Source: Candidatus Poribacteria bacterium (GTDB lineage Bacteria > Poribacteria > WGA-4E > WGA-3G). Taken from it: a stretch of DNA of 64,000 bases. Both the position numbers and the translations under genes were made by a program. Below the pieces are notes generated by a model. That model had not been told where the DNA came from and searched no databases. It worked only from the letters and a program-made list of their open reading frames with translations. The stretch is from contig CBDBFU010000004.1 in the NCBI GenBank assembly GCA_965205025.1, forward strand, positions 12,898-76,897, read 5' to 3'. Below, one piece after another: positions 4,012 through 63,720 of the stretch (position 1 is its first letter; every line of letters starts with the position of its first letter).

Positions 4012-4013
4012 TA

Positions 4014-5351: not shown

Positions 5352-5357
5352 TCAGAA

Positions 5358-9654: not shown

Positions 9655-9740
9655 TTTCTTATTTTCTCTTACCATCACCTATTAAATGTGGTACACTATT
9701 TACGATGTGAAAGTCAAGTGAAATAAGTATATCTAAGGAG

Positions 9741-10611: not shown

Positions 10612-10659
10612 CTCAAATGTGTCAAGAAAAGACTACCTACATCTTTACCATAAAATGCC

Positions 10660-11238: not shown

Positions 11239-11282
11239 TGTTCTACGTCTTTATCGATTGACGAAGGAGACACTGCACAGAC

Positions 11283-14952: not shown

Positions 14953-15057
14953 TAACTGAAATCATACTGAGTAGGGTGGATTCGACTTACCTATTGAATC
15001 ACAAGATAGAATGATTATATACTGAAAAGCAGATATTGATTTTAGAATACTTCCATT

Positions 15058-15747: not shown

Positions 15748-15758
15748 AAAGGATTCAA

Positions 15759-19277: not shown

Positions 19278-19292
19278 GAGTAAATACTTGAT

Positions 19293-20963
19293 ATGCGTAA
19301 CTCATTAATTCCTCTTATTTCGCTTAGCCTCGTTGTCTTAACTACATTCTCCGTCAATGCCCAATCACATATTACAAAGGCTGATGCTGATATTGAGGCA
19401 CTTGTGTCTACTATGACAATAGATGAAAAAGTTGGACAACTCCTTATGTTCGGTATTGGAGGTACCAAAGTTGGACAAGTTGCTGAAGCACATATTACAA
19501 AACGCCTTGTCGGTGGTTTAGTACTCTTTGGTAAGAATGTAAAAGATCCTGTACAGTTGGCTAATCTAATTGCTGGCTTACAACAACTTTCATTACAAAC
19601 ACAGAAAGGTATTCCATTGTTAATTGCAATGGACCAAGAAGGTGGAACAGTAGTTCGCATGAAAAAAGGTGCAACTGTACTACCGGGGAATCTTGCATTA
19701 GGGGCTACAAGATCTATTGTATTAGCAGAAAAAGCTGGAAGACTCACCGCGGTAGAATTGTCTGCTGTTGGGGTAAATATGAATTTTGCACCGGTAATTG
19801 ATGTAAATACCAATCCGAAAAATCCGGTTATCGGTGTCCGCTCTTTTGGGGAATCAGCAGATCTTGTCGCGCAAATGGGAACTGCATACATACGTGGACT
19901 TCAACGGAATGGTGTTCTCGCAACTGCTAAACACTTTCCTGGCCACGGGGATACGACTGTTGATTCACACAAAAAACTGCCTATCATAACTCATGACAAT
20001 AAACGTATTGAAACTGTTGAATTACGGCCATTTCGTGCGGCAATAAAAGCAGATGTTGCAGCAATTATGTCCGCACATATCCTTTATCCTGAACTTGATC
20101 CTGAATTACCTTCAACACTATCATACAATATCCTAACAAAACTTCTAAGACAGAAGTTAGGATTCAATGGTGTCATTATTACAGATGACATTGAAATGCA
20201 GGCAATAGATGCAAATTACGAATCTGGTAAAGCAGCTGTGATGGCAATTCAGGCTGGAGCAGATATAGTCCTTGTACCATGGAACTTAAAAAAACAGCAA
20301 CGGGTTTATAATACCTTACGTCAGGCAGTACGGAACGGAAGAATTACCGAAACACGATTAAATCAATCTGTTAGACGCATCCTAAAAAGCAAGAAAAATT
20401 GTAATGCCTTCGAAAAAAGAGAGGAATATAGGTACGCATCAAATCCAATTGACGGTCCAATTGAAATAGTAGGGAATTCAAAGCATCGAGAAACTGCTCA
20501 AATTATTGCATCACAAGCAATAACTCTATTAAAGAATGATGACAATATCCTACCTTTAAGTACTGATTCAAAAGATCCATTACTACTGCTTAGTCCGTCA
20601 CGTTTATTCTCAAACACTTTCCTAAAGGCACATCCGGAATTGGAACACATTACACCAGTTATTATTCCACCAAAAGTTAACCCTGAATATATATTACCTA
20701 TATTATTAAAGAATAATGCCAAGTTAATCGTTGCTGGCATACAAAATGCTCAACAAGCAGATCTAATTCACCAATTTAGCCAGAAAACTGACACACCAAT
20801 CATAGTGATATTGCTTTCATCTCCCTACCTTTTTGGAAAATGTCCTGATGTATCGGCTGCTATCGCAGCCTATGATGACAACTATTATTCATTACTCGGT
20901 GCAATAGAAATCTTGTTAGGAAAGAAACAAGCAGTTGGTAAATTGCCTGTCACAATACCTTAA
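19293..20963 (+). CDS. glycoside hydrolase family 3 N-terminal domain protein (beta-N-acetylhexosaminidase/beta-glucosidase-like), secreted
   Basis: Signal peptide MRNSLIPLISLSLVVLTTFSVNA. GH3 signature KHFPGHGDTTVDSH. 16 nt after the previous gene. Confidence 0.85.
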   Translation: MRNSLIPLISLSLVVLTTFSVNAQSHITKADADIEALVSTMTIDEKVGQLLMFGIGGTKVGQVAEAHITKRLVGGLVLFGKNVKDPVQLANLIAGLQQLSLQTQKGIPLLIAMDQEGGTVVRMKKGATVLPGNLALGATRSIVLAEKAGRLTAVELSAVGVNMNFAPVIDVNTNPKNPVIGVRSFGESADLVAQMGTAYIRGLQRNGVLATAKHFPGHGDTTVDSHKKLPIITHDNKRIETVELRPFRAAIKADVAAIMSAHILYPELDPELPSTLSYNILTKLLRQKLGFNGVIITDDIEMQAIDANYESGKAAVMAIQAGADIVLVPWNLKKQQRVYNTLRQAVRNGRITETRLNQSVRRILKSKKNCNAFEKREEYRYASNPIDGPIEIVGNSKHRETAQIIASQAITLLKNDDNILPLSTDSKDPLLLLSPSRLFSNTFLKAHPELEHITPVIIPPKVNPEYILPILLKNNAKLIVAGIQNAQQADLIHQFSQKTDTPIIVILLSSPYLFGKCPDVSAAIAAYDDNYYSLLGAIEILLGKKQAVGKLPVTIP

Positions 20964-21292
20964 TGTCAATTCTACAGGACACTATCCTTCCCATCCAGAT
21001 TTACCGTTGTTTTTCCATGCCCATATAATCTTCACTTGGTAGATCAGGTCACCTATTATATGCAATACACGCATCTGGTGTTGAATTAATAGAAACCGAA
21101 CCTTTATAGAACAGGTTTGAGGTAAAATATTATCTTTATACTCTTACATTTTGACAACAATTACTTTCTGATTATTGCCAATTTTCCTTATCAATTATAC
21201 GATTTTATCACAAACCTATTTGATAATATTGATATTGACAAATGGAGACATGATCCTTGATTTCATTACATTCTTTAGACTCAAGTACAGCT

Positions 21293-23125
21293 ATGCAAGA
21301 TTACACACAATGGAATCTACCCACAGGTGTGAAAGCCCGTCTGGGGAAGGGTAGGATAAGTGATGTATTAAATCCATCTGAAATAGCATACTCTCCCGAT
21401 GGACAGTGTTTTGCTGTAGCAAGTGCCAATGGTATTTGGATATACGACGCACAGACGGCTAAAGAACTTAACCTCCTAACAGGACATACATCTGATAACA
21501 CAACCGTATCTTTCAGTCCAGATGGGGTTATCTTGGCAAGTGCGAGTGGGGACAATACCATCCGTTTGTGGGAAATTCAAACTGGAGCACATGTCGGAAC
21601 ATTGAAAGAGCATACATCTCGTATTAATAACATCGCATACAGTCCGAGTGGCTTATTATTAGCAAGTGCAGGTGATGACAATACAATTCGTCTGTGGGAT
21701 GTGCAAACACATGATATGATTCGGACACTCAGAGGTCATACAGACAGGGTTACCAATGTTGTATTCAACCCAGACGAATCTATCTTGGTTAGCGCAAGTT
21801 GGGACAATAACATATGTCTTTGGGATGTGCATTCTGGCACCTTGCTTCAAACACTCACAGGGCATACATCTACTGTCAGTAGAGTATCGATCTGTGCAGA
21901 TGGAAAAACACTTGCAAGTTCAAGTTGGGACAAAACTGTGCGTTTGTGGGATATGCAAAAAGCAATGCATATACATACTCTTATAGGACATACGGGGAGG
22001 GTTACCAACGTTCTATTTAGCCCAAATGGTGAATTACTTGCAACCACTGCGATGGATCATGATACAGATTTACGCTTGTGGGACATGCTGACAGGTGGTA
22101 CACCTCTTAAGATACTAAAAGGACATACGAGAAAAGTTACAAGTCTTGTGTTTAGTCCGGATGGGTCTACTTTGGTAACTGGAAGTGGGGACTGCACTGT
22201 CCGTCTGTGGGATGTGGCAAGTGGTACATCACGTCAGATAATTACAGACCATACCTTTCGTGTCGCAAGTATCGCCTACAGTCCGGATGGATCAATGTTA
22301 GCTAGTTCTGGATGGGATGAAACTATACCTATATGGAACACGTATACCGATGAATTACTTCATCGACTTAAAGGACATAAGGCTGATGTCGTAGACCTTG
22401 CGTTTAGTCCTGATGGAAAGACAATCGCAACTTCAAGTTGGGATAGAACAGCACGTTTATGGGATGTGAAGACAGGTACATCTTTACACATACTGACAGA
22501 GCATCGTGACTTTGTCAATTGTGTAATTTTCAGTCCTGATGGCAAGACCCTTGCCACTGGGTGTGCTGGGAGTGCTGACAATGATGTGCGTTTGTGGGAT
22601 GTAGCGAAGGGAAAACTCATATTGACATTGACAGATCATACGCGGAGTATCAATAGCGTAGCGTTCAGTCCTGATGGCAAGACTCTTGTGAGTTCAAGTG
22701 ATGACAGGACAGTCCGTTTTTGGGATGTAGAAACTGGAGCACATATTCGAGTACTTAATGAGCATACGAAATCTGTTTATAGTGTTGCATTCAGTCCTGA
22801 TGGAAAGATACTTGCAAGTTCGAGTGACGACAGGACAATACATTTATGGAATATACAGACTGAAACATATTCACACCGTCTCACAGGACATACCGATGGT
22901 GTAAGGTGCGTTATATTCAGTCCAGATGGAAAAACACTCGCAAGTGGGAGTAGAGACAATGATGTGCGTTTATGGGATACTCAAACAGGTAAACACCTAA
23001 AGACATTGCAGGGTCATACAGGACTGGTTTATACAGTTGTATTCAGTCCAGATGGAAAAACACTCGCAAGCGGGAGTCGTGACGGCAGCTTGCTGTTTTG
23101 GGACCTTGATTCACAAAACCAGTAG
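21293..23125 (+). CDS. WD40-repeat protein (second paralog, ~13 repeats)
   Basis: Repeated GHT-x-x-V-x-S-V-x-FSPDGK-x-LASxS-x-D-x-TVRLWD units. N-terminal LPTGVKARLGKGRISD as in 5358-7295. The ORF track start 21257 is TTG; the first ATG is 21293. Confidence 0.85.
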   Translation: MQDYTQWNLPTGVKARLGKGRISDVLNPSEIAYSPDGQCFAVASANGIWIYDAQTAKELNLLTGHTSDNTTVSFSPDGVILASASGDNTIRLWEIQTGAHVGTLKEHTSRINNIAYSPSGLLLASAGDDNTIRLWDVQTHDMIRTLRGHTDRVTNVVFNPDESILVSASWDNNICLWDVHSGTLLQTLTGHTSTVSRVSICADGKTLASSSWDKTVRLWDMQKAMHIHTLIGHTGRVTNVLFSPNGELLATTAMDHDTDLRLWDMLTGGTPLKILKGHTRKVTSLVFSPDGSTLVTGSGDCTVRLWDVASGTSRQIITDHTFRVASIAYSPDGSMLASSGWDETIPIWNTYTDELLHRLKGHKADVVDLAFSPDGKTIATSSWDRTARLWDVKTGTSLHILTEHRDFVNCVIFSPDGKTLATGCAGSADNDVRLWDVAKGKLILTLTDHTRSINSVAFSPDGKTLVSSSDDRTVRFWDVETGAHIRVLNEHTKSVYSVAFSPDGKILASSSDDRTIHLWNIQTETYSHRLTGHTDGVRCVIFSPDGKTLASGSRDNDVRLWDTQTGKHLKTLQGHTGLVYTVVFSPDGKTLASGSRDGSLLFWDLDSQNQ

Positions 23126-34542: not shown

Positions 34543-34855
34543 TAGAAATGCAGAAGAGAATTAGTAGGTATGTGGTTCTCTAAACGACTATATAATAGTG
34601 TAATTTAAGACATATACACTTACATACCTCGGTAGGTGCTGTTTCCCGACGAATTCCTATCGGGAATACCTTAATGGCATTCATACCGTTGATTTGACGG
34701 ATTCGGTGTTGATTCCCCGCATTGGTTTTTAGTGTATCATAAACTTAAAATCTACCATATTATGACTTAATCACACAAACTGATTTTGTGAATCATTGTT
34801 CAGAAATAACATAAGACATTATCAATCTATTTTTGGTATCGGAGAAAAATTCATA

Positions 34856-36187
34856 ATGGAAATTCCTGATCTTCATATACTCGGTGGTGGGCCTGCAGGT
34901 TTAACGACAGGATATTATGCCAAGAAACACAATATCAATTTCCTTATATATGAAGCGGGGGAACAAGTTGGAGGGAACTGTCGTACACTTCAAATTGATA
35001 ACTTTTTGTTTGATACTGGAGCACACAGATTTCATGATAAAGACCAAGAAGCAACAAAAATAGTTAAAGAATTACTTGGAAATGATCTACAAAAGGTTGA
35101 TGCCCCAAGCCAGATTTACTTTAAGAGTAAATATTATTGCTTTCCATTGGTACTAAGTGATCTGGTTCAGAAACTGGATAGAAAAACTCTACTAAAAATC
35201 ATTTTTGAGAAACTGCAAAGTGGACAGATAAGGCATTTAGATAATTTTAAACAACTTGCACTGAAAAAGTATGGCAGTACGTTAGCAAACAATTTTCTAC
35301 TTAATTACTCTGAAAAACTATGGGGTGAGACACCAGAAAAACTATCTACATCAATTACTGGCAACAGACTAAAAGGATTAAACCTTTGGAGTTTTCTACA
35401 ATCTACCGTTCTGGGTACTCCAAAGAATCCAAAACACTTAGACGGAACATTTTTCTATCCAAAATACGGGATTGGAATGATTCCTAATAAACTCTCTGAA
35501 TTTATAGGTAAAGAACGGATTCACTTAAATCATAGAATTAGTCGTATTAATCATAATTATGAAAAAATTGAAAGTGTAATATTAAATGATGATCTGGAGA
35601 CACAGATTAAGTATGTTGTGAATACATTACCTTTAACATTATCAATTCGTTTGATGAATCCAAAACCCCCATCTGAATTATGTGAAGTAGCAAATTCAAT
35701 AAAATTTCGACATCTTGTTCTTTCAATATTCTGCTTAAATCGAGAATATTACACACACAATGCTTCACTTTATTTTCCAAGTGAAGACTTTCCATTTACA
35801 CGTTTGTATGAACCAAAAAACAGAAGCATTCACATGGCACCAGTTGGACAAACAGTAATTGTATTGGAAATCCCATGTTACACAGAAGATCCAATCTGGT
35901 CAATGGAAGACAATACTATTGAAAAAATAGTATGGGACGCTTTAAGTAAAGTTAAGACAATAGATGCAGAGGAGGTAATCCACAGTCAAATATATAGACT
36001 TCCTTTCGCTTATCCTGTTCTTGAAGTAGATTTCGAAGATAAAGTTAAGCAGCTGGTGTCTTATTTCGACCAATTTAATAATTTACTTCTGACCGGCAGG
36101 AGTTCGCTGTTCAGGTATCTACATCTACATGACCTTTTTCATGCAGGCAAAGATGTAATAAGTAAATTGCAACAATCAAACATATAA
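34856..36187 (+). CDS. FAD-dependent oxidoreductase (amine-oxidase/protoporphyrinogen-oxidase-like Rossmann family)
   Basis: GGAG RBS. N-terminal dinucleotide-binding motif HILGGGPAGLTTGYYA...YEAGEQVGGNCRT. Confidence 0.75.
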   Translation: MEIPDLHILGGGPAGLTTGYYAKKHNINFLIYEAGEQVGGNCRTLQIDNFLFDTGAHRFHDKDQEATKIVKELLGNDLQKVDAPSQIYFKSKYYCFPLVLSDLVQKLDRKTLLKIIFEKLQSGQIRHLDNFKQLALKKYGSTLANNFLLNYSEKLWGETPEKLSTSITGNRLKGLNLWSFLQSTVLGTPKNPKHLDGTFFYPKYGIGMIPNKLSEFIGKERIHLNHRISRINHNYEKIESVILNDDLETQIKYVVNTLPLTLSIRLMNPKPPSELCEVANSIKFRHLVLSIFCLNREYYTHNASLYFPSEDFPFTRLYEPKNRSIHMAPVGQTVIVLEIPCYTEDPIWSMEDNTIEKIVWDALSKVKTIDAEEVIHSQIYRLPFAYPVLEVDFEDKVKQLVSYFDQFNNLLLTGRSSLFRYLHLHDLFHAGKDVISKLQQSNI

Positions 36188-50605: not shown

Positions 50606-53600
50606 ATGAGAAAAGTATTATCAGACTATATAAAAACACAGGAAGATTTCGAACGATTCTGTAATTTGTTCTTGAAAAAGGAAATATCTCCCCTTGTAAA
50701 GGTTTACAACACATCAGGACCTGATGGGGGTATTGATGCGGAATACTGTGGGACATACGCCGGGAAAAATGGTCGTTGGGTGTTTCAGTGCAAATTCCGT
50801 AACTTACCAAATACAGAGAAAACGCGACGCAACATCATTTCTGTTATGAAAGGTGACAAGAGAAGAAAAGACAAAAGAGGGGAGTTAGACAAAGCAAATG
50901 AATCGAAATGTGATCATTATATCCTAATAACCAACGTCTCGCTGACTTCAGGGAACATTGGTGAAATCAAGGGTATTCAAAGTCAGAAAGGCTATACTTT
51001 TTCATTAGACGTTTGGGATGCTGAAGACCTGATTACAATGATCGATGAATTTCCCTACATACTAAATTCATTCCGAGATCCGCATCTACCTGTATTCCTT
51101 TCTTATGAAGACATGTTCCGCGATCAAATCAAAGGCGACCATAGACTCTTGAGGTACGACTACGATACCTTTGGACGAGAGGAGGAGATTGACCAATTTA
51201 GATCCTTTGTCCAAGACACTGACAAAAGATTGTTCGTTATGTCTGGGAGTGGCGGCATCGGCAAAACTAAACTTGCAATTGAATTCGCAAAAATGGTCGA
51301 ACAAGAACACCATGACTATGAACCCTTATTTGTTCAAATTGCCGAAGATAGTTTTGAAAATGCGTTGGCAGATATTCCACCAAATAGAAAGTACATCTTC
51401 TTTGTAGATGACGCGCATGACTATATAGACAACCTTGGCGGTATTAAAATATTGCTTAAAAGTTCTGGATATAGTGAATCGAAAGCAGTCCTTATAACAC
51501 GAAAGCCGTTTAAAGCATCTTTGAGAGGGATTTTCTTATCTGCGTTACCAGAACAAGCCATTCACGAAATGGAAATTCCAAGACTATCGTTTGAGAAAAC
51601 CAAAGATTTTATCAATTCACATATACATATCCAAGACAGTGTCCGTTTGAATGACTTGGCAAAAATTGGAAAAGATACACCTTTAATTACTGTAATGGTG
51701 ATAGATCTATTCAATAAAGGAAATGATCTTAGTAAATTAACAGAAGATAAATCGATAGAACGTGTTTTTGAATCCTATATAAATGACATATTTAGTAAAC
51801 ACCTTCGTAAATATGACAAACAACACAGAACATTACTTAACTGGTTCAGTGGAATCGAACCAGTAGACATTGAAGATAACAGAACACTCGAAAAATTGGC
51901 TGAACTCTTAAAACTGGAAATCTATGAGATAGAAAGATACCGTGATGATCTTATAGGATCCGGTTTACTTGTTCAGTATGGAAGGAAGTCAAGGGTTTTC
52001 CCTGGTCCACTCAGCGATTATATTTTACGGAATGCATGTTTTTTATCCGATAGGAATACTTCCTCTTTTCACAAGTCATTGTTAGAAGAGTTTCTACCGA
52101 TCTGCCCTATCAATGTTGTTAAAAACTTAGCACGGGTAGAAATCACAGCTGGTAAAACAGAACTTCTTGACGAGTACGTAAATAAGCTTCAATTACTGGC
52201 ACAATCAGGTGATAACGCTGATCGGATGCTTATTCTACTTCAAATGGAAGGCATCTGTTATTTTCGACCAGATGATGCAATTGAGATCTTTAATATCATC
52301 CTGGATAATCCGCATTCTGAAGCCACTGAAGTGGTGGACAAGTTTTGGGGGAAATTCACGGTGACACATCAAGCGTTAGTAGAAAAGATAGCGAATGAAG
52401 CACAAAAGACTGTTTACACGCTTTCAGGATTCCGCGGAACGTTAAATGTTATTCGAAAACTTTTCCAGGCGGATAACCTGGATTCCCCTAATGTTCGTAG
52501 ACCAGAATGGTTACTAAGGGATATAGTCCGTTTCCGAAATGGTAAATCCTTTGTATTTCAAGAGGAAACTCTTGAAGCATTTGAGATGTGGAAAAATGAA
52601 GATATACCAAAGCTCAGTATAGCACTGCTCAACGCACTTGATTCTTTACTTGTAATGGATTTTCAAGAAACTGTCAGTGAAGGATTTACATTGAAGATTT
52701 CTTGGCACTCATTAAAATACACTCCAGCATTAATCCAGATTAGAGAGCGTTCTATCAATCTCATAGCAGATTGTATGAAAGTAACTCAGTATACTAAAGT
52801 TAAATTGAAAGCGATAGATTGTATTAATAAAGCTCTAAGACCGTTTGAGGGTCCTCGTAGGAACCCTGATTTGATGGATGAAGAAGAACAATTATTTCTA
52901 CAAGCAGAGCAAGAACGGCTTTTTCAAATACTTACCAATCAATTATCAGAAGAATCTGATTTCAATATCCTCAATGCCATAGATGAGTGTTTACATGTAT
53001 ACACGGAAAATCCACCCGGCTACTTAAAACAACGTGCTACACAATTGTTAGAAAAATTTGAGAAACAAGATAACTATAATCACTATCTTTTTTATAGGCA
53101 ATTTACTGGAAAATATCGACAGTGGACAACCCCAGAAGAAAAAACAAAAATTCGTTGAAAAGTATATAGAAGAATATCCAGCTAAACGTCTTGCAGAATT
53201 AATGAGTGCATTCCTGGGCTCAAGTGTGTACGAAACGAATACTTTGGCAGTAACTGAACATCTATGGACTATTGGTAAACTTAACCCAGTTTATGGATCT
53301 GAATTGTTAGATTATATTCTTTCTTTGCAGACTGATGTAAAAGATTACGCAGCAGGGTTACTTGGTGGTATTCGTTATTCCAATAACGATAAGGCATTAA
53401 AAATAGAACACCAATTATTGAAACAAGACAATATATCTGTCAAAAGAATCGTTGTAAAGAGTTTTTTATGGGTCATGGAAGGACAATCTTTAGATAAAGA
53501 TAATCTGCAAATTTTACTTCAATTGGTAGATATACCAGATGAAGGCTTAAATTCAGACATTGTTAAAACTCTACCTAATTTCTATAACGTGGACGTAGAA

Positions 53601-54450
53601 TCCGTTCGGGAGATATTACTACGATTATCAACCAATGAATCATCATTGATTAAATCGGAGACTATAAAAGTTCTTTTGAGATTCCCATCACAGAAATACT
53701 TGGACACTTACAAACAGGTAATGCACAATTGTGTGAAATTAGAACACCTTGATTATCATTCTGAGGAAGTCCTACATGCCATATTTATGTCTGATCCGAT
53801 ATGGGTTATTACGTTTTTTGAGAAACGAATTGTATACCAAGAGATGGAATTTAAGAGGAATGCTACAAATTATGAGGCAATTCCAATTCGAACTAACAAT
53901 CTGTTTAGGGAAATTGACTGGAATGACAATAACGTTATGAATGCTTTAAGGCGGGTTAGAGATTGGGGTTTAGGACCTCCGAGTTATCGTAAATGGCTGG
54001 CTCCCGGATTATTGTCATCTATGGTTGATGGGAACAGTTCTCAAATTGAAGGCACTAAAATCAACAAAACGGTGCAAACAATCCTTGAAGAATGGATTGA
54101 CTCAGAAGATTCAGATAAGATGTGGTGGGTAGCTTGTTTGTTGAGAAATTTTGATAAAGACAAAAACTTTTTACTCTCTTGTAGAATCACTTCTTATAAA
54201 AAGTAAAGGAAATGCAAAGATATTAACCGAAATTGAAGTTTCTATTGGTAATGTAGGTGCTTATTCCGGACCTCTTGGTGAACCGCTACCTCACCATGTA
54301 AAACGCCTCGAATACCTTAAGGCATTGCAAGACAAAACTGAATCCTCAATTGTCAAACAGTTTGCAGATCGCCTCATAGATAGAACAAAACAGGAAATCG
54401 AAAGAGAACAGCAAAGGGATGAAGAATTTCTTGAAGGAGAGGAATGGTAA
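50606..54450 (+). pseudogene. Avs-like antiviral STAND NTPase with N-terminal Mrr-type PD-(D/E)xK nuclease domain; interrupted by two +1 frameshifts at A-runs (~53140 and ~54160)
   Basis: N-terminal ...GPDGGIDAEYCG...WVFQCKFRN (Mrr_cat motif), then P-loop MSGSGGIGKTKLAIEFA (NB-ARC/STAND-like), then long helical-repeat region. ORFs 50606-53158, 53058-54206 and 54151-54450 are successive +1 frames. Their joins fall in GAAAAAACAAAAATT and ACAAAAACTTTTTAC. Confidence 0.5.
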
Positions 54451-54647
54451 ACCTAACGCACGAACAAGACCTCCTTGACGAAATTGACAACCTTAATTCA
54501 CAAAACCAAATTCAAAATTCTGTCGGTTTACCCCCACAAGAAGTTAAATCAAAAATTGAGAGACTAATTAAAACGACCCAACAGCGGATTAACGCCACAG
54601 AATTACATCTGAACTTAATAAAAAAAATAGATTCAGAAATCAGTTAA
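54444..54647 (+). CDS. small hypothetical protein (67 aa), start overlaps preceding stop (ATGGTAA)
   Basis: Translational-coupling-type overlap. No homology recognised. Confidence 0.3.
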   Translation: MVNLTHEQDLLDEIDNLNSQNQIQNSVGLPPQEVKSKIERLIKTTQQRINATELHLNLIKKIDSEIS

Positions 54648-55623
54648 TACATGATGACATAGATAGTGTAGTTCATCCAATATCTCCTCTTTCAGGTCTT
54701 ACATCTGATCCAAAATTGAATTTCTACAATTCATTCTTTCCTACTAATACCTCCCCAACCAGTCCTACTACAGAAGTAATCACTTTCTGCAAATATGTTT
54801 TTCAAGAGACTGTCAATTTTATAGATGTATGTTATAAGTTGACTTATGATGACCTACAACAAAGCGGAAGTCTTCCAGTTTAGTATTCTCAGATTTCTAA
54901 TGTCAGAGAACTTGAAAAAGTGATAGCATTCATGGCAGGATTGCACTGCAAATTTCGCATTTTTGACATTGAGTAAGTCAAAATATGCTGATTCAATCCT
55001 TAATTCAATTTTTTCTTGCACAATTTTTGTATAATTGATACAATACCTGCTGACGTTAATAATTCGCGAAGCGCGCGTGGGTTACGTCAGGAAGCTGCCT
55101 AAGTTTGCTTAGGTGCGTCACCGGTGCAGCAACACCAGCGACGCTTAGCACTGACATAAACGGACTATGACAGCGCTGGTTTCTATTATAGCATATAGCA
55201 TAAAGTTTTTCTTTCTGTTAGTTCTAAGATGGGAACCAGCTTCCTATAGGGATGAGTTGCCTGAAAATACTTCTCTTTTATTGACAGATATGTCTGTCAA
55301 CCCACCCTGTAGACTGTCAAGACTATATACACAACCCTGGTGTAATTTTGATACAGTCTAAATTCAAATACACCCATAAATTACTATATATCACAATCGG
55401 TTTGTTTCTATTCACAAATTCTCATATTCTGTCGTAGCGATTTTCGATTCACGACATACTATCGAGAATCGGAATCTTCTCCTATTTTGTATGATGTTGT
55501 GAATTGAGAAGTTTTGATATTCAAAACTCAAACGAGACCAACGGGTGTAATATAAATATGTCAAGTGTTAACTGTCATAACGCATAAAATTAAGAAAATC
55601 TAATTTTTTCATAAGAGTTCCAC

Positions 55624-58600
55624 TTGATGCAACAAGATCAGAACAGAACATCAGAATCCCTACAAAAACTACAAGACCTACTCCAAAAACTTTTCCGTGC
55701 AGATGCCGCCGACCTTGACTTCGGCATCTACCGTGTCATTAACCAACGACGCAATCTAATCCAAGCTTATATTGACCAAGAACTTCCCACCGAAATAAAT
55801 GATGCGCTTAACGCAAACGCCGAAATTGAATCAGATCGCGAAAAACTTGAAGAGCTAAAAAAAGGAGTCGTAGATGCTTTTGGTAATGATGTGTTAGATG
55901 TAGAGGGAAATCTAATTGATGAATCCATTAAAGAGCGTCCTGGAGTTAAGAAATACCTTGAGGAGAAAGAACGAATTGGCTCCCCGCAAACTCGTGATCA
56001 GCGCGCAGATGTCGTTTTCAATCATCTTTACACCTTCTTCTCACGATATTACGATAACGGAGACTTTATCCCACGCAGACGTTATTCACAAACCGAACGT
56101 TACGCTGTTCCATATAACGGTGAAGAGGTATATCTCCATTGGGCAAACCGAGATCAATACTATGTCAAGAGTGGAGAGCACTTCTCCGATTACAGATTTA
56201 AGTCTCAAGAAATTACCGTTATCTTTGACCTTCAAAATGTAGATATTGAAAAAGACAATGTCCAAGGCGTTAAACGTTTCTTTATTCCTATAGCAGCAGA
56301 GACTAAATATAACTCAGAAACCGACAAGGTGTGCATCCCTTTTGAATACCGTCCCCTTACCGATGACGAAAAATCACGCTACGGCACCCGCGACCAACAG
56401 GACAAAATCATTGATGCTGCAGAACCTGAAATCTTGGAAAAACTGTCAAACCATTATAATGCATTATCTGCCCTTGAGCATCAAACAGAGGATGTAACCA
56501 TCCTCAAGAAACACCTCCGAACCTATACACGCCGCAACAATGCCGACTTTTTCATTCACAAGAACCTTGGGCAGTTTTTTAATCAAGAATTGGATGTCTT
56601 CATCAAAAACGAAGTGATACCGATGTCCTCACTCATTTTTGATGATGTTAATTTCAATTTAGAGAATCTAAACAAGGTAAATTGGATTGAAACAGCAAAT
56701 CTCGTTCTCACCATCGCTTCTAAGATTATTGATTTCTTGGCACACATTGAAGAATTCCAAAAACGTCTTTGGCTAAAAAAGAAGTTTGTTCTTTCTACCG
56801 ATTACTGCTTTACGCTTGACCGTGTCCCAGAAGAACTCTATCCCGATATAGCGGAGAACGATGCACAACTTGAGGAGTGGAAAGACCTTTTTTCTATTCA
56901 CGAAATAGACCACGACCTTATCCATACCGATTACTCCGAGCCGCTCTCCGTTAACTTTCTCAAAGAAAATCCGAACCTTGTTTTGGATACCTGCCACTTC
57001 GACTCTGACTTCAAAGATCGCCTCTTGACACATTTTAACGATCTGGATAACGAGACAGACGGCTTGTTAATTCATGGGGAGAACTTTCAAGGATTGAATC
57101 TGCTGACTGAGAAATACCGAGAATCTGTAAAGTGTATCCACATTGATCCACCGTATAATACTCAAACAAGTGGGTTTCTCTATAAAAACTCATACCAGCA
57201 TTCAAGTTGGTTATCAATGATGGCAGATAGATTGACTTTATCTGAATATTTTATGGCCCAGGATAGTTGTTTCTTCTCTCATATTGACGAGAGCGAATAT
57301 GAGAAACTTTTCTTGTTTTTTAAAACATTATCAATGGATGATCAAGGGACAGTTGTGTGGGATAAAAGGAACCCCATTGGAGCATCAAATACGATAGCGA
57401 CACAACACGAATATACTATTTGTCATTCTAAGGGAAATGTAAAATTAAAGTCACAACATGCTAATGGTGAAATAATATTAAAAAAAGCATCGTCATTAAT
57501 GAAAGCACATAGTGGAGTTACAGTCCAATGCCGTAAAGAATTTAAAACTTGGATTAACACAAATACAGAGTTAAGCGGAATGGAACGATCCTATTCTGCA
57601 ATTGACGATAATGGACATGTTTATACAACTGTCCATATGGGAGCTGGAGATGTCCGAACAGATCCTAAATACTTTAGACATTTAATTCATCCTATTACTA
57701 AGAAACCTTGTCCTGTGCCGAAAAATGGTTGGTCAAGTACTCCAGAATACATAGATGGTTTATTACAGAATAATGAAGTTAGCTTCGGCGTTGATGAAAC
57801 AACTCAACCACGCCGAAAGTGTTATTTGAAAGATAATCTGACAGGTGAATTAACGTCTGTAATTTCAACTGGTGAACGGGGCAAACACCAACTGGATGCG
57901 TTTGGTTTAGATTTTCCGTATTCTCACCCCGTAGGTTTGTATGAAAAACTTGCTTGGTCAGTTACACCTGATGGAGAAGGTATAATACTTGACTTTTTTG
58001 CAGGTAGTGGTACTAATGCCCACGCAGTTATTAATCTCAATCGTAAAGATCATGGAAACCGAAAATACATCCTTATTGAGATGGGACACCACTTTGATAC
58101 TGCACTGATGCCTCGCGTCAAAAAAGCTGTTTATGCAGAAAAATGGAAGGATGCAAAACCTGTCTCTCGTGATAGTAGACTTTCCCACATCATTAAATAC
58201 CAGCGTATTGAATCTTATGAAGATGCCCTCAATAACATAGAATTCAACGAAACTGATTATCAAAATCTGTTAGTTAACGAACACCAATTGAGTTATATGT
58301 TGGAAAGCGATACAAAGGAATGTCCAACGTTTCTAAACATCTCGGAACTCCAAAACCCGTTCAGTTATCAACTTGATATTGTCAAAGATATGCAGACACA
58401 TACACAGACAGTGGATTTACCCGAAACCTTCAACTATCTTCTCGGTTTATCAGTCAAGACTCGTCAGTGCTTGTACGATGATGACAGACGTTATCTTGTC
58501 TACAGAGGAACAGTTGGGCAAAAGTTGGTCGTCATTATCTGGCGTGAAACTTCAGGGTGGGAACAAGAAGATTATGAACGTGATTATCGTTTCATTCAGG

Positions 58601-58710
58601 AGAATGAACTCACAGAAGGTGCAGCAGAGGTGTATGTCAACACAGATAGCAATGTCCCGGAGGCAAAATCTTTAGATCCGCTTTTTAAACGGTTAATGTT
58701 TTCACAATAA
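55624..58710 (+). CDS. Type III restriction-modification Mod-like N6-adenine (beta-class) DNA methyltransferase with ~480-aa N-terminal extension of unknown function
   Basis: LIHGENFQGLNLLTEKYRESVKCIHIDPPYNT (motif IV DPPY preceded by the Type III Mod I-x-GDNL-x-L box), ATQHEYTICHSKGN, motif I ILDFFAGSGTNAHAV. 1028 aa. Confidence 0.8.
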   Translation: MMQQDQNRTSESLQKLQDLLQKLFRADAADLDFGIYRVINQRRNLIQAYIDQELPTEINDALNANAEIESDREKLEELKKGVVDAFGNDVLDVEGNLIDESIKERPGVKKYLEEKERIGSPQTRDQRADVVFNHLYTFFSRYYDNGDFIPRRRYSQTERYAVPYNGEEVYLHWANRDQYYVKSGEHFSDYRFKSQEITVIFDLQNVDIEKDNVQGVKRFFIPIAAETKYNSETDKVCIPFEYRPLTDDEKSRYGTRDQQDKIIDAAEPEILEKLSNHYNALSALEHQTEDVTILKKHLRTYTRRNNADFFIHKNLGQFFNQELDVFIKNEVIPMSSLIFDDVNFNLENLNKVNWIETANLVLTIASKIIDFLAHIEEFQKRLWLKKKFVLSTDYCFTLDRVPEELYPDIAENDAQLEEWKDLFSIHEIDHDLIHTDYSEPLSVNFLKENPNLVLDTCHFDSDFKDRLLTHFNDLDNETDGLLIHGENFQGLNLLTEKYRESVKCIHIDPPYNTQTSGFLYKNSYQHSSWLSMMADRLTLSEYFMAQDSCFFSHIDESEYEKLFLFFKTLSMDDQGTVVWDKRNPIGASNTIATQHEYTICHSKGNVKLKSQHANGEIILKKASSLMKAHSGVTVQCRKEFKTWINTNTELSGMERSYSAIDDNGHVYTTVHMGAGDVRTDPKYFRHLIHPITKKPCPVPKNGWSSTPEYIDGLLQNNEVSFGVDETTQPRRKCYLKDNLTGELTSVISTGERGKHQLDAFGLDFPYSHPVGLYEKLAWSVTPDGEGIILDFFAGSGTNAHAVINLNRKDHGNRKYILIEMGHHFDTALMPRVKKAVYAEKWKDAKPVSRDSRLSHIIKYQRIESYEDALNNIEFNETDYQNLLVNEHQLSYMLESDTKECPTFLNISELQNPFSYQLDIVKDMQTHTQTVDLPETFNYLLGLSVKTRQCLYDDDRRYLVYRGTVGQKLVVIIWRETSGWEQEDYERDYRFIQENELTEGAAEVYVNTDSNVPEAKSLDPLFKRLMFSQ

Positions 58711-58785
58711 TACCAATTTTGCTTAATTAGTTTACATTAATAGCAAATCGGAGAAGCTAATTTAGTTCAAAAGGATTCTATAAAC

Positions 58786-58856
58786 ATTCCGTCCCTACGG
58801 GACTCAAGATAATGGATAAGCACGTTTTCTATAGACATTTCGTCCCTACGGGACTC
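58786..58856. repeat. two ~35-bp direct repeats each containing hairpin GTCCC-TAC-GGGAC
   Basis: TCTATAAACATTCCGTCCCTACGGGACTCAAGATA / TCTATAGACATTTCGTCCCTACGGGACTCATAATA. Confidence 0.45.
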
Positions 58857-59037
58857 ATAATATCTATATGATAAACCTTATATCACGTAAGTCACGTAAG
58901 TCATAATGTAAATTTATCAATTGAAAATGGTATTATATGGTCTTAATTATTTCAAGGGAAATGACCCATGAAACTCGAAGAAAATAAAAGAATCTGTTGT
59001 TCAAGGAAACGGAGTGAGTTTGTTGAATACCTAACAC

Positions 59038-60492
59038 TATAGGCGTCAATTTTAGAAAAAGGATGTCTGATTTTTCAATAATAATTATTGTTAAGTGAAA
59101 ACATCTCCTATATAATGTATAAAAATATTACCTTTTACTTTATACAAGAGGTGTTTCCAATGAATACATTATCACAGGTTCCTGAAAAAATGCAACAGAT
59201 TCTAACAACCATTGCTGATGAAGCAGCCCTTGAAACAGGATTTTGCAAAAGAAATCGAAAACTTGCGGGGAGTCATTTTGCTCAGACACTTATTTATAGT
59301 TGGTTAGAAAATCCTGATGCCACCTATACTCAACTTACACATACTGCTGCTTCTCTCGGTACTCCAATCTCACGACAAGCGATTGAACAACGATTTACTG
59401 CTGAAGCTGCACAAACCCTCAAAGCAATCCTTGACGCGGCTGCGTCCGAAGTGATTTCTGCGGATCCACAAGTTCTCCCACTCCTTGAACAGTTCAACGG
59501 TATCTATATACAAGATAGTTCTTGGATAACACTCCCTGATACGCTTCACGATATTTGGGAAGGTGCCAGTAAAAAGGATTATCCGAACAAATCCGAACTG
59601 AAACTCCATCTACGCTTCGATGTTGCTACAGGGACATTCGAACACTTTCAACTCACCAACGGCATCACCGCTGATAGCACTGTAGAAAAACAGATTGACC
59701 GGCTCCCCCAAGGGAGTTTACGCCTTGCGGATCTCGGTTATTTTTCGCTACAAACCCTTCAAGAACTTACGGACGAAGGGGTCTTTTGGATTTCACGGTA
59801 TAAAGTTAGGTGTTCGGTTTTTGACAATACAGGAAAGCCTCTTTGTTTACATAAATGGCTCAAGTTTCAGACCGAAAACATTATCGAAACAGATATTTTC
59901 ATAGGTTCAAAAAAGCGGATGAAAGTAAGATTAGTAGCTCAGAGACTCTCCGAAGAAGAAACCGAAAAACGACGACGAGATATCAACTATCGTGCTAAAC
60001 GAAAGCATACACAAGCATCACAGGCACGACTCCAACTCGCAGGTTGGAATATCTACATTACAAATATTGGAACGGATCAACTCACCGCTGAACAGATATG
60101 TGTCATTGCGCGGATTCGATGGCAGATCGAGTTGATATTTAAGTGCTTTAAAAGCCTTGGAAAAGTAGACACATCACGAAGTAAAAAACCGTATCGTATT
60201 CTATGTGAAATATATGCTAAACTGATCGCTGCAATCATTCGGCATTGGGTGATGTTGGTCATAGGATGGCGATGTTTACGGCATAGTTTATCGAAAACAG
60301 TAGAGCTTATTACGTCCTACACACGCACAATCACAATAAGCTTTCGCAAGTCAAAGAGACATCTTAGAGAGACATTTGATGAGATAAAACAAGTATTCGA
60401 AAACGGGTGCTACATTGAAAGAAGAGCTAATAGAAAAACAACATTGGAATATCTTGAAAATGCTACAAAAAACCGCTAAATTGACGCCTATG
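59038..60492 (+). mobile_element. complete IS4-family insertion sequence (1455 bp) with 15-bp terminal inverted repeats, flanked by a perfect 20-bp direct repeat
   Basis: IRL TATAGGCGTCAATTT (59038-59052); IRR reverse complement CATAGGCGTCAATTT (60478-60492). Flanking direct repeats GTTTGTTGAATACCTAACAC at 59018-59037 and 60493-60512. Single transposase ORF. Confidence 0.75.
59160..60479 (+). CDS. IS4-family DDE transposase
   Basis: AAGAGGTG RBS then ATG 59160 (MNTLSQV...). C-terminal Y-x-x-R-W-x-I-E-x-x-F-K motif (IARIRWQIELIFKCFKSLGK) is typical of IS4/DDE_Tnp_1. Confidence 0.8.
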   Translation: MNTLSQVPEKMQQILTTIADEAALETGFCKRNRKLAGSHFAQTLIYSWLENPDATYTQLTHTAASLGTPISRQAIEQRFTAEAAQTLKAILDAAASEVISADPQVLPLLEQFNGIYIQDSSWITLPDTLHDIWEGASKKDYPNKSELKLHLRFDVATGTFEHFQLTNGITADSTVEKQIDRLPQGSLRLADLGYFSLQTLQELTDEGVFWISRYKVRCSVFDNTGKPLCLHKWLKFQTENIIETDIFIGSKKRMKVRLVAQRLSEEETEKRRRDINYRAKRKHTQASQARLQLAGWNIYITNIGTDQLTAEQICVIARIRWQIELIFKCFKSLGKVDTSRSKKPYRILCEIYAKLIAAIIRHWVMLVIGWRCLRHSLSKTVELITSYTRTITISFRKSKRHLRETFDEIKQVFENGCYIERRANRKTTLEYLENATKNR

Positions 60493-60570
60493 GTTTGTTG
60501 AATACCTAACACCCAGAAGGCACCAACAACGCAACTCAAAAAAGAGACACGGCAACTCACAGAACACACG

Positions 60571-63500
60571 GTGAACGCAATGCCTAACGCACGACAGCAA
60601 CGCAAACTTGACAACCATCTCACCCTTCACGGATGGTTAAATAGCCACTTCAAGTACAAAACAACACAAGACCTTCTTAACGCAGTAAAAAACGAAGAGG
60701 AAGGCTTCAATCCAGATGGACACTCTCCCATCTGTGAATTTCTTATCTCCCGTGCAGAGCCAGATTCAGCAATTGAGAATGCCCTACCAACCTACGACAG
60801 TAACATCAAACGACACCTGTCCGCTATAAACAGTAAACGTACACAACCGATTGTTCTCCGCTATTTCCAATACCTTTCCCTGATCTATACCGAAATATTC
60901 CTTGATTGGAAATTCAACAAAAGTGGTGAATTCTTACGTCAACTCAATGATTTTGTCCAAACACGTAACGATGCGCGAGCACCGAGTGACGCGATGGATA
61001 CACCTTTTTCAGAAGCAGACGTTGAAAAACTCGCCTTCTGGATGGCAACGGGTGCTGGCAAAACACTTATTATGCACATCAATTATCACCAGTTCCTGCA
61101 TTACTGCAAAGAAAAGTTAGACCACATTGTGCTTATCACACCTAACGAAGGATTAAGCGAACAGCACATGCGTGAACTCGCAAACTCGGATATCCGATGC
61201 GAACGGTTTAACGTTGAAGGTAATCGTCTGTCGCACGCGGACGATACGATGCAAGTCATTGAAATTACAAAGTTAGTAGAGGAAAAAACAGGTAGCGGGG
61301 TAAGTGTTCCAGTTGAGGCATTTGAGGGAAATAATCTTATTCTTGTTGATGAAGGACATAAAGGCAGCGGTGGTAAAGTTTGGCGTGAATACCGAGAAGC
61401 ACTTGCCGAAACAGGTTTCACTTTTGAATACAGTGCGACCTTCGGACAGGCACTCGCTGCTGCAAGCAATGCTGATCTCATTGATGAGTACGGTAAATCC
61501 ATTGTATTTGATTATTCCTACCGATATTTCTATGGTGATGGATACGGTAAGAACTTCCGCATTCTCAACGTCAAACATGACGACGCAACCCAAACGGAGA
61601 TGCTACTTTTAGGCAATCTTCTGAGCTTCTATGAACAGAGACGTTATTTCAGTCAAAATACTGAGGTAGTGTGTGATTACGGTTTAGACTCGCCACTGTG
61701 GGCATTTGTCGGTAGTAGGGTGAATGCCGTTTATTCCGAAAACAAACAATCACGTTCTGATGTTCTTAACGTTATAAGCTTTCTGCATCAGTTCCTGAGA
61801 AATGAAAAAGGATGGGCAATTGATACTATTGAGAAAATCCTCAACAACGATTCCGGATTAAAAGATGACAACGGTAGCGATGTTTTTTACAATAGACTTA
61901 GTTATCTCAAAGAATCCAGAGATACACCAGCGCAAATTTACACCGCTATTCTCAACGAGGTATTTCACACTGATTCAAGTGGGGAATTACACCTGAGTGA
62001 CGTCCGTAATGCTCCTGGTGAAATCGCTTTAAAAACAACACATGGTAGTAAGGAATTCGGACTCATTTACATCGGTGACACGTCTGCCTTCAAAAAACTT
62101 GTTGAAAATGACGATGCAGGTATTAAAACGGATTCTGAAGATGTTCTCACCGAGAGTCTCTTTAACGGCATTAACACCGTTGACAGTCCAATTAATATTC
62201 TCATTGGCGCGAAAAAGTTCATTGAAGGATGGGACAGTTGGCGTGTCACCGCTATGGGACTATTGAACATTGGTAAGCAAGAAGGCTCTCAGATCATTCA
62301 GCTTTTCGGCAGAGGGGTTCGCCTACGTGGCAATGATATGTGTCTTAAACGAAGTAGTGCCGTTGGTGGTGAACATCCGCCTAATCTTCCACTTTTAGAA
62401 ACACTTAACATTTTTGCTGTCCGTGCCAATTTCATGGTACAATTCCGAGATTACCTTATGCGTGAGGGTGTCCCACCCGACGAACCTGTCCAATTGGAAT
62501 TACCCATCAAACCGAACATAAATTACCTTTCGAATCAACTTTTTGTTCCAAAAGTGTTGGAATATAACAAAGCTGCGAAAGGAAAGTGTGTAATGCTTAA
62601 AGCAGATCCAGCTGCTATTATTTCCCATACGACCCAAAGCGTTGAGATTATTGGGAGTAGTTCACAGAGTGGTATCCAAGGGGATCGAGCGGATGCGGCA
62701 CTCCAAACTCATATTGAAGATAAATACTTGAAATTAGTAGACTGGGAGAACATTTACTTGCAACTCCTTGAGTACAAGCAAGAAAAAGAATTTCATAATC
62801 TGATTTTTAATACCGAGATTCTTCAACAGATACTTAATCCAAACAAAGGTTTATATGAACTTTATGTCATGGATGAGTCTGAAGTTATGCCGAAATCATT
62901 TGTTGAATTGGAACGATTAGAGGAATTAGTACTAACACTCCTCCGCAAATATATTGCTAAATTTTATCGTATTATTCAAAAACGTTGGAATGATGAAGCA
63001 GTACGCTTAGATAAGTTGAAAAAAGAGAACCCTAACTTCACTAATTGGAAAGTTTCCATCCCTCGAGAGGATGCAAGTGAACTTGAGCCACAAATAAAAC
63101 ATCTCATAGAAAATGGCGTTATATATGGACCTGATTTAACCCATCTTCCCAATATCTATAATGACCGTCATCTCTACCAACCCCTTCTCACTGTAGGTGA
63201 AGTAGACACGGTGTTACGTACAACCCCGCCAGCCTTAGAGGAAAGTGAAAAACACTTTGTCGAAGATCTTCGTCGTTACGTACGTAATCAAGATGAGACA
63301 CTCCTTGCCAAAAAGGAGATTTACCTCTTACGTAACCAGAGCCGTGGCAAAGGAATGGGTTTTTTCGTAAATGAAGGCTTTTACCCCGACTTCATCCTCT
63401 GGATACTTGAAGGTGTGAAACAGCGGATCGTTTTCATAGAACCCCACGGTATGATCTATGAAGTCATAAATGAACACAACGACAAAATTACTCTTTTCAA

Positions 63501-63720
63501 GAGACTGCGATCCCTCTCCCATGAACGTTTCCGTGGTGAACACGTGCAAATGGATGCCTATATGATTTCAAGAACCAGTATGTCTAATCTTATACGTAAA
63601 TATCAAGACGAGGACAGAGATACATTTGCAGAAAAATGGCATATCCTTTTCCGCACCGATACCGATCCCACCTACCTTTCCCCAATCTTTCAAGATCCAG
63701 ATTCAGATTTTTCTGCCTGA
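60571..63720 (+). CDS. Type III restriction enzyme Res-like subunit: SF2 helicase/ATPase with C-terminal nuclease-like region
   Basis: Motif I MATGAGKTLIM, motif II LILVDEGHKG (DEAH-type), motif III YSATFGQA, motif VI QLFGRGVRL. C-terminal YPDFILW...RIVFIEPHG resembles PD-(D/E)xK with K replaced by H. 1049 aa. The start is GTG 60571 or ATG 60580. Confidence 0.75.
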   Translation: MNAMPNARQQRKLDNHLTLHGWLNSHFKYKTTQDLLNAVKNEEEGFNPDGHSPICEFLISRAEPDSAIENALPTYDSNIKRHLSAINSKRTQPIVLRYFQYLSLIYTEIFLDWKFNKSGEFLRQLNDFVQTRNDARAPSDAMDTPFSEADVEKLAFWMATGAGKTLIMHINYHQFLHYCKEKLDHIVLITPNEGLSEQHMRELANSDIRCERFNVEGNRLSHADDTMQVIEITKLVEEKTGSGVSVPVEAFEGNNLILVDEGHKGSGGKVWREYREALAETGFTFEYSATFGQALAAASNADLIDEYGKSIVFDYSYRYFYGDGYGKNFRILNVKHDDATQTEMLLLGNLLSFYEQRRYFSQNTEVVCDYGLDSPLWAFVGSRVNAVYSENKQSRSDVLNVISFLHQFLRNEKGWAIDTIEKILNNDSGLKDDNGSDVFYNRLSYLKESRDTPAQIYTAILNEVFHTDSSGELHLSDVRNAPGEIALKTTHGSKEFGLIYIGDTSAFKKLVENDDAGIKTDSEDVLTESLFNGINTVDSPINILIGAKKFIEGWDSWRVTAMGLLNIGKQEGSQIIQLFGRGVRLRGNDMCLKRSSAVGGEHPPNLPLLETLNIFAVRANFMVQFRDYLMREGVPPDEPVQLELPIKPNINYLSNQLFVPKVLEYNKAAKGKCVMLKADPAAIISHTTQSVEIIGSSSQSGIQGDRADAALQTHIEDKYLKLVDWENIYLQLLEYKQEKEFHNLIFNTEILQQILNPNKGLYELYVMDESEVMPKSFVELERLEELVLTLLRKYIAKFYRIIQKRWNDEAVRLDKLKKENPNFTNWKVSIPREDASELEPQIKHLIENGVIYGPDLTHLPNIYNDRHLYQPLLTVGEVDTVLRTTPPALEESEKHFVEDLRRYVRNQDETLLAKKEIYLLRNQSRGKGMGFFVNEGFYPDFILWILEGVKQRIVFIEPHGMIYEVINEHNDKITLFKRLRSLSHERFRGEHVQMDAYMISRTSMSNLIRKYQDEDRDTFAEKWHILFRTDTDPTYLSPIFQDPDSDFSA

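Follow-up and report, generated by a model that had tools for sequence, protein, structure and literature searches.

A likely Type III restriction-modification system of Poribacteria with a long-form methyltransferase and a conserved N-terminal module

The locus described here raises the question of why a DNA methyltransferase that otherwise resembles a Type III restriction-modification (R-M) system's modification subunit (Mod) begins with some 470 residues of unfamiliar sequence, and whether this region turns the system into something other than a Type III enzyme. The gene, mod, and its partner for the restriction subunit (Res), res, are located on a stretch of 64,000 nucleotides from a Candidatus Poribacteria bacterium (assembly GCA_965205025.1, contig CBDBFU010000004.1), which was analyzed as a whole and is referred to below as the window; its DNA is most similar to metagenome-assembled genomes (MAGs) of Candidatus Poribacteria. 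A previous sequence-only reading had recognized a Type III-like Mod with an unexplained N-terminal extension and had proposed that the extension could be a sensor, regulatory or DNA-reading module, which would make this an atypical R-M or R-M-derived defence system. The Type III identity and the additional N-terminal region were borne out by our analysis, but the proposal of an atypical or derived system was not: the locus very probably represents a two-gene Type III R-M system, mod followed by res, belonging to a long-Mod lineage in which Eco86II is the characterized member.

The C-terminal portion of the window Mod, comprising approximately 560 residues, was identified as an ordinary Type III Mod with a beta-class methyltransferase (MTase), a target recognition domain (TRD) related by homology to the EcoP15I TRD, and a C-terminal domain, as judged by sequence and fold matches to solved Mods. 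Pfam recognized N6_N4_Mtase alone (aa 501-823). The motif quoted by the sequence-only reading, IHGENFQGLNLL, was found at aa 481-492, followed by IHIDPPYNT with DPPY at aa 507-510 and by ILDFFAGSGTNAHAV, which includes FAGSGT (aa 791-796); this is the beta-class order, with motif IV (DPPY) N-terminal to motif I (FAGSGT) and the TRD between them. Searches with phmmer against solved Type III Mods matched those of EcoP15I (1e-39), H. pylori (1.5e-24) and Mbo45V (1.5e-20), and the same three proteins were recovered by Foldseek (4zcf at 6e-12) with the full-length AlphaFold2 (AF2) model, which reached a predicted local distance difference test score (pLDDT) of 73 and a predicted template modelling score (pTM) of 0.73. 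The beta-class core, the order of motifs IV and I and a homologous TRD are thus shared with EcoP15I/EcoPI (4zcf), Mbo45V and the H. pylori Mod (further solved structures 7dsu and 6k0w). What differs is the N-terminus. Chain residue 83 of the EcoP15I Mod was aligned opposite window aa 468, in an alignment that also included the TRD, and residue 84 of the Mbo45V Mod opposite window aa 463. The catalytic core of the window Mod accordingly begins at about aa 470, compared to approximately 82 residues before the equivalent point in EcoP15I Mod, and the protein has roughly 380 N-terminal residues more than the solved Type III Mods; counted in front of the ordinary Mod portion, some 380-470 residues are missing from canonical enzymes. 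Canonical Mods, being 570-650 aa long with about 80 residues before the equivalent of window aa 465, do start about 100 aa before DPPY, as had been stated, and lack the first two of the N-terminal domains (NTD-A and NTD-B; Table 1) entirely. The start codon is likely ATG 55627, because close relatives begin with MQQDQN.

The long Mod is not peculiar to this window. The PADLOC model MTase_III PDLC03646 (1057 positions) spans it from end to end (E 8.5e-227), and PADLOC matched the methyltransferase to Type III and Type II MTase models only. With the N-terminal region alone, PDLC03646 (E 7e-85) and PDLC03638 (E 1e-18) were obtained and no other defence protein model. Because the region by itself matches the N-terminal part of Type III methyltransferase models, it is essentially a known Mod N-terminal arrangement, and the extension does not point to an atypical or R-M-derived defence system. 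A profile of the N-region retrieved 3086 proteins from 1.84 billion cluster representatives, 1156 of them at E<1e-30; among the best 150 of these matches, nearly all were 1000-1060 aa long with the domain at residues 1-500. Full-length members were found with a family profile in Neomoorella, Sulfuricaulis, Synechococcus, Dehalococcoides, Clostridiales, Gemmatimonadota and Poribacteria, named in their sources 'site-specific DNA-methyltransferase' or 'Type III RM methylation subunit'. Furthermore, IncF plasmids of Klebsiella and E. coli carry members of the family, as do 167 out of 5426 complete E. coli genomes; in RefSeq, the E. coli genes encode 1040-1046 aa. The window Mod was co-linear with 117 full-length homologues. 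Its N-terminal 470 aa define the lineage and have been conserved vertically within a single polypeptide; they are no recent fusion. Since the frame is open and conserved in thousands of homologues, the N-region is neither a chance open reading frame (ORF) nor an annotation artefact. The window Mod is therefore a typical member of a large, already catalogued, widespread and partly characterized Type III lineage.

A second long Mod lineage (PDLC03638), represented by the 899-aa Mod of the Rhodothermus marinus plasmid pRHOM17201, shares window aa 130-470, the MTase and the class of TRD, and its Res is related to that of the long lineage, with the same FxPDFxxW...DPKG nuclease motif. It differs from the window system in lacking NTD-A, in a degenerate GDF...PYNGEEV...DQYY motif, in a shorter C-terminal domain and in a different Res N-terminus. 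NTD-A is specific to the long lineage; the 899-aa Mod has no convincing counterpart of it, the significant alignment starting at window aa 130. No link could be made between this second lineage and the Res-dependent methylases DthLIII and FnoB1III.

The link to a characterized enzyme comes from E. coli. The chromosomal Mod of strain F9792 (1040 aa) is 38% identical to the window Mod over aa 19-1027, a match that takes in the N-terminal module, e.g., FFSRYYDNGDFISKRRY...YAIPYSGEEVMLHWANKDQYYIKSGE, and the F9792 Res is 32% identical to the window Res over its full length. The F9792 mod gene is 99.9-100% identical in strains NCTC86 and B4103-1. Eco86II has been described as the single Type III system of NCTC86, with the isospecific systems EcoF9792I and EcoB4103II; directly 5' of its mod gene lies an additional gene for a superfamily 2 (SF2) ATPase (Murray et al. 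2021, PLoS One, PMC8259958). In the NCTC86 genome, the mod gene sits between a 5' SNF2-related gene and a 3' DEAD/DEAH helicase gene, and from this context and the published description we infer that the 1040-aa Mod is M.Eco86II. Murray and colleagues reported that the Eco86II Mod alone methylates GAGCC to N4-methylcytosine (m4C), that a native preparation of Mod and Res, free of the additional ATPase, cleaves DNA about 25 bp 3' of the sites, and that the role of the SNF2-type ATPase was not yet established (PMC8259958). Their mod-only plasmid constructs were 5.9 kb, compared to 4.7-5.3 kb for other mod genes, which fits a longer mod gene of roughly 3 kb; the N-terminal module is not mentioned in that paper (PMC8259958). 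By analogy with these enzymes, the long-Mod lineage would contain bona fide, mechanistically conventional Type III systems, and the co-linearity of the whole window protein with the NCTC86/F9792 Mod, together with the normal Type III behaviour of Eco86II (PMC8259958), argues against an atypical system.

The m4C Type III systems Eco86II, EcoF9792I and BspHIV resemble the window locus in their Mod of approximately 1040 aa with the same N-module, in the Res family, in the order mod then res and in the class of TRD. They differ in the SNF2-type ATPase gene and the helix-turn-helix (HTH) gene located 5' of mod, both of which the window lacks, and in the Res nuclease motif (D-P-K in the E. coli systems, E-P-H in the clade of the window). 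A tblastn search of the window with the E. coli SNF2 protein returned nothing, which places the locus outside the three-gene Eco86II/BspHIV subgroup. In E. coli and Klebsiella, the SNF2-related ATPase gene and the small HTH gene were located 5' of mod at 5941-8904, 5090-7980 and 1589-4480 in the retrieved loci L082, L084 and L085, respectively; the SNF2 gene is frameshifted in F9792 and intact in NCTC86.

The window Res was matched by PADLOC REase_III (PDLC03654, E 4e-157) and by Pfam ResIII, and like canonical Type III Res subunits it combines an SF2 ATPase with a C-terminal nuclease. It contains the Walker A motif ATGAGKT (aa 159, 61045-61065), DEGH (aa 260, 61348-61359) and the nuclease motif YPDF...EPHG (aa 937-960, 63379-63450), i.e., PD...E-P-H; compared with PDB chains, EcoP15I Res included, it had no sequence-level match. 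A survey of this motif revealed (E)-P-H in the window and a large subclade and (D)-P-K in the others, including E. coli. A reading of the histidine as decay was rejected, since E-P-H is kept throughout a large subclade, and the residue is a conserved K-to-H variant of the PD-(D/E)xK lysine and no one-off loss.

To evaluate the pairing of the two genes, which the sequence-only reading had suggested checking, one genome per species was scanned, yielding 80 loci that cover many bacterial phyla as well as some archaea. Directly downstream of mod and on the same strand, 70 of these loci encode a full-length Res homologue. Eight of the ten loci without Res reach the contig end less than 1 kb past mod, and in the other two (L054 and L060) no Res match was found within the only 2.5-4.1 kb of downstream DNA present. 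The check was thus positive, with most exceptions lying at contig ends. The SNF2 gene was present 5' of mod in nine of the 80 loci.

The N-terminal region of the window Mod was divided into four parts, three subdomains and a variable linker, on the basis of predicted secondary structure and conservation (Table 1). Conservation was expressed as the share of columns at least 90% conserved in an alignment of 118 sequences. By this measure NTD-B is the most conserved segment of the protein (41%), followed by NTD-C (35%), the C-terminal domain (33%), the two MTase halves (22-28%) and NTD-A (20%), while values for the linker (7%) and the TRD (2%) were low. Invariant polar residues (D146, N164, E166, E167, D176, Q177 and K181) are clustered in the NTD-B motif, across which the AF2 pLDDT fell below 50 despite its conservation, both in the full-length and in the N-only model. 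For the isolated N-region, pLDDT was 77 and pTM 0.55, and because this pTM lies below that of the whole protein, the models suggest that the N-subdomains pack on the core formed by the MTase and the C-terminal domain.

Table 1. Features of the mod-res locus, with positions numbered from the first nucleotide of the window
Feature	Position	Strand	Description or basis
mod, long-form Type III methyltransferase	55627..58710	+	ORF; 1027 aa (1028 aa from TTG 55624)
NTD-A, aa 1-120	55627..55986	+	helical; LFxxDxADLDFGIYR motif; helical hairpin with variable tip; AF2 secondary structure
NTD-B, aa 121-337	55987..56637	+	alpha/beta module
Hyperconserved motif FFSRYYxxGDFxxRRRYS...YAxPYNGEEVxLHWANxDQYYxK, aa 137-181	56035..56169	+	invariant alignment columns
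Variable, mostly acidic linker, aa 338-352	56638..56682	+	no repeat tract in the window gene
NTD-C, aa 353-470	56683..57036	+	long helix and small alpha/beta unit, running into the MTase core; common to the second Mod lineage
MTase N-half, motif IV DPPY at 57145-57156	57037..57426	+	motifs, Pfam, phmmer
Target recognition domain, aa ~601-760	57427..57906	+	DNA alignment breaks; TRD identities; EcoP15I alignment
MTase C-half, motif I FAGSGT at 57997-58014, then beta-rich C-terminal domain aa 841-1027	57907..58707	+
Pair of 36-nt direct repeats in the spacer between mod and res, each containing a GTCCC-TAC-GGGAC hairpin	58776..58862	+
Complete IS4-family element between mod and res	59018..60512	+	Pfam DDE_Tnp_1; NCBIfam transpos_IS4_1 (E 1.8e-62)
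res, 1049 aa, SF2 ATPase and C-terminal nuclease	60571..63720	+	PADLOC REase_III, Pfam ResIII, motifs

The extension had been reported to contain no recognizable motif, and indeed no known domain or fold accounted for it in the searches made. Nothing credible was found for aa 1-470/489 in Pfam, NCBIfam and PHROGs, and a per-member Pfam scan of the N-regions of 21 diverse homologues gave nothing above noise. Compared with PDB sequences, aa 1-470 had no match as a single sequence and, as a 21-sequence profile of diverse homologues, zero matches at E<=10. Foldseek searches of the N-only model against PDB and BFVD reached a best E of 0.07 in each, with a probability of at most 0.21 in PDB. No nuclease, NTPase or reader family matched the region in the Pfam, NCBIfam, PDB-profile and PADLOC searches. 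Matches to TraY, TSP_NTD and CARF were dismissed as weak and inconsistent between family members, and a PD-(D/E)xK reading of D146...E166/E167...K181 was discarded, because neither the spacing of these residues nor their position in the predicted strands agrees with it and the second lineage lacks the motif. The N-module thus has no Pfam family and no solved relative, and it is not discussed in the one paper characterizing members of the lineage.

The TRD of the window Mod is 37-40% identical to the E. coli and R. marinus TRDs and belongs to the same class as those of EcoP15I, Eco86II and the R. marinus Mod. At the DNA level, identity to the closest relatives, L002 and L017, is 77-81% for the N-module and for the C-terminal part of the gene, but window positions 57210-57981, covering the TRD, could not be aligned to L002, L017, L003 or L004, with flanks 69-81% identical; the TRD DNA was alignable with the first mod copy of another poribacterial locus, L001. 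A TRD that cannot be aligned between well-aligned flanks indicates that the window mod gene holds an exchanged TRD allele, a kind of exchange also seen in other mod genes of Type III systems. The same pattern is displayed by E. coli genomes, in which matches cover about 52-54% of the gene.

A further property became apparent in the poribacterial relatives rather than in the window. Among the closest relatives, 55 distinct truncated products of approximately 340-370 aa were detected, ending just past an IKNEV...L motif with tails translated from poly-G (GGGG), (AG)n (RERERE) or (AC)n (THTHTH). In L001, (AG)11 was found in an out-of-frame copy (11045-11066) and (AG)24 in an in-frame copy encoding 1068 aa (18555-18602); L019 contains (AG)9 (1317-1334) and L042 contains G9 (4507-4515). 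All of these tracts lie in the linker after NTD-B, at the equivalent of window 56638-56682. Homopolymer errors of long-read MAGs could affect the frame state of such tracts but not their existence. The excess of truncated matches in N-fragment searches was partly a word-index search bias, which was also encountered with the R. marinus query; the pile-up of products at 340-360 aa behind repeat-encoded tails is nevertheless real. These relatives therefore suggest a candidate phase-variable Type III mod gene in sponge symbionts. As in phasevarion mod genes such as that of MmyCI of Mycoplasma mycoides, a phase-variable Type III mod with 12 AG repeats (PMC3498834), a tract within the ORF sets the frame. 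Unlike MmyCI-type phasevarions, however, the tract is located about 1 kb into the ORF, after the N-module, and the OFF state leaves an N-module fragment of about 345 aa. The window gene itself falls outside this category, no tandem repeat having been found within mod (55624-58710). The L001 locus, from a 4.25-Mb MAG, contains at least three tandem mod copies (8864-21074) with identical N-modules, different TRDs and different (AG)n lengths, interleaved with repeated minus-strand genes of about 340 aa containing GIEQ repeats, which are probably of the Rpn/PD-(D/E)xK transposase-like kind, judged by eye. The DNA retrieved for this locus showed no res gene.

In the window, mod and res are separated by 1860 nt, compared to about 13 nt in the nearest relative, L002, which together with L017 is syntenic with the window from an upstream nSTAND-like ATPase gene through res. 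The gap is mostly taken up by a complete IS4-family insertion sequence (IS) with 17-nt inverted repeats (59036-59052 and 60478-60494), a 463-aa DDE transposase (ORF 59088-60479) and flanking 20-bp direct repeats (59018-59037 and 60493-60512), ending 59 nt upstream of res. Besides the element, about 390 nt of the spacer are additional to the closest relative. The IS4 element splits an operon that is contiguous in L002, and the expression of res may be uncoupled from that of mod. A 463-aa ORF at 34796-36187 was considered as a second IS copy and rejected, being an amine oxidase. In other loci (L006, L007, L009, L010, L024, L026, L055, L068, L076 and L079), 1-4.6 kb of unrelated cargo were found in the same gap, including, by motif, Fic/DOC, OLD-like ATPase, Abi-like, HEPN/MNT (nucleotidyltransferase) pair, RhuM-like, SIR2-like and TIR-like genes; the mod-res junction of related loci is a hot spot at which defence or toxin genes insert.

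On the reading of the locus as a two-gene Type III system, and by analogy with Eco86II, a Mod dimer would read a short asymmetric site and methylate one strand, m4C and N6-methyladenine being indistinguishable from sequence for this enzyme, and Res would use ATP to switch to sliding and would cut near the site when two unmodified inverted sites communicate. The N-module would form an extra arm packed on the MTase and C-terminal-domain core, helping to hold DNA and/or the divergent Res. We tentatively favour such an integral, lineage-specific holoenzyme module, acting in DNA handling or in coupling to Res, and it is probably no autonomous sensor. Several points weigh against this picture. The role is deduced for a module that has no sequence or structural relative of known function, and a co-conserved docking region sought in the N-terminal 150 aa of Res received no support (7% of columns conserved). 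Since M.Eco86II methylates in the absence of Res, relief of an inhibition exerted by Res is not what the module is required for (PMC8259958). The conservation of NTD-B above that of the catalytic core and its invariant D, E, K and N residues would also fit an enzymatic or ligand-binding site. Moreover, the Eco86II assignment of the NCTC86 locus rests on context and description, with no quoted accession, and the IS4 element may silence res in the window.

On an alternative view, the N-module, and NTD-B in particular, would be an autonomous domain, i.e., an enzyme or a binder of nucleotides, modified bases or a phage protein, that adds an activity or a checkpoint missing from canonical Type III enzymes. 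That NTD-B exceeds every other segment in conservation, that its invariant polar residues fall into one motif, that no known fold accounts for it and that AF2 was unsure exactly there, as can happen for ligand- or partner-dependent sites, speak for this view. However, the second lineage has NTD-C and the remainder of NTD-B in common with the window Mod but does not conserve the motif, no nuclease, NTPase or reader match was obtained, the residue spacing does not suit PD-(D/E)xK, and the characterized homologue behaves as a plain Type III enzyme (PMC8259958); we consider it rather unlikely. Slightly more doubtful still is the specific form in which NTD-B would be a new functional domain, either a DNA- or nucleotide-binding switch or a catalytic site made up of D146, E166, E167, D176 and K181, that couples Mod to Res. 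If this were true, the repeat tract of the relatives would switch between a full enzyme and a free N-module fragment with a role of its own. Very improbable, in contrast, is an R-M-derived, non-classical defence system of the BREX, DISARM or Dnd kind with the long methyltransferase as a component: such a system would account for a large methyltransferase with an unexplained domain and for the third, SNF2-type ATPase gene 5' of mod in some relatives, but PADLOC assigned both Mod and Res to Type III models, no BREX, DISARM or Dnd components were matched beside mod and res in the Pfam and PADLOC scans of the window, the SNF2 gene is missing from the window and from all but nine of the 80 surveyed loci, and that of Eco86II is unneeded for methylation and absent from the cleaving preparation (PMC8259958).

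Two further explanations concern the state of the genes rather than the type of system. The window locus could be decaying or uncoupled, with Mod acting as a solitary methyltransferase, possibly in an epigenetic role, and res silent. The IS4 element and the extra spacer argue for this, as does the lack of any conspicuous terminator-like or strong promoter-like signal in the sequence preceding res. Nevertheless, both reading frames are complete and retain every catalytic motif, many related loci tolerate 1-4.6 kb of cargo in the same gap, EcoP15I res has its own promoter (PMC12707154), and a weak outward promoter-like site is present at the right end of the IS (60454-60482); we consider a decaying or uncoupled locus rather unlikely. 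Finally, the long ORF might be an artefact, whether because a sequencing error joined two neighbouring genes or because the start was called wrongly, considering that many database relatives are split into products of approximately 345 and 550 aa. These split forms are explained by frameshifts at the linker repeat tracts, full-length proteins of about 1040 aa, over 100 in number and drawn from many phyla, are co-linear throughout, and the E. coli RefSeq genes are of similar length, which leaves this explanation scarcely credible. The two-gene Type III system with a long Mod thus remains the preferred reading of the locus.

The region upstream of mod contains further conserved features. A stretch free of ORFs (54633-55452) shares 80-82% identity with L002 and L017 and includes a conserved sigma-70-like promoter site on the + strand (TTGCAC-17-TACAAT, 55016-55044). 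It is followed by a core of about 320 nt (55050-55370) that folds far better than shuffled sequences, with z values of -4.75 for the + strand and -6.1 for the - strand; the + strand is favoured by one-sided changes in which G-U pairs are retained. This element had no match in Rfam, no other copy in the window and none in two JGI metagenome scans, and it could represent a long mod leader or an unknown non-coding RNA. The genes directly upstream (50606-54647), syntenic in L002 and L017, encode a protein of 850 aa that matches nSTAND3/AAA_16 weakly and a HEAT-repeat-like protein of 382 aa, accompanied by two small ORFs of 99 and 67 aa; they may form a separate STAND-type defence or signalling module beside the R-M system. 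Two large WD40 beta-propeller proteins, of the eukaryote-like repeat kind (5358-7295 and 21257-23125), are located amid TonB-dependent receptor and GH3 genes, an arrangement consistent with the chromosome of a poribacterial sponge symbiont.

For the window methyltransferase, no new category of enzyme is needed. What is worth keeping is the N-module of about 340-470 aa, whose NTD-B is better conserved than the catalytic core and which can be tested in the tractable Eco86II system of E. coli, with Type III assembly, DNA sliding or control as candidate roles. In the relatives of the window gene, the repeat hot spot behind this module suggests phase-variable methylation in uncultured Poribacteria.

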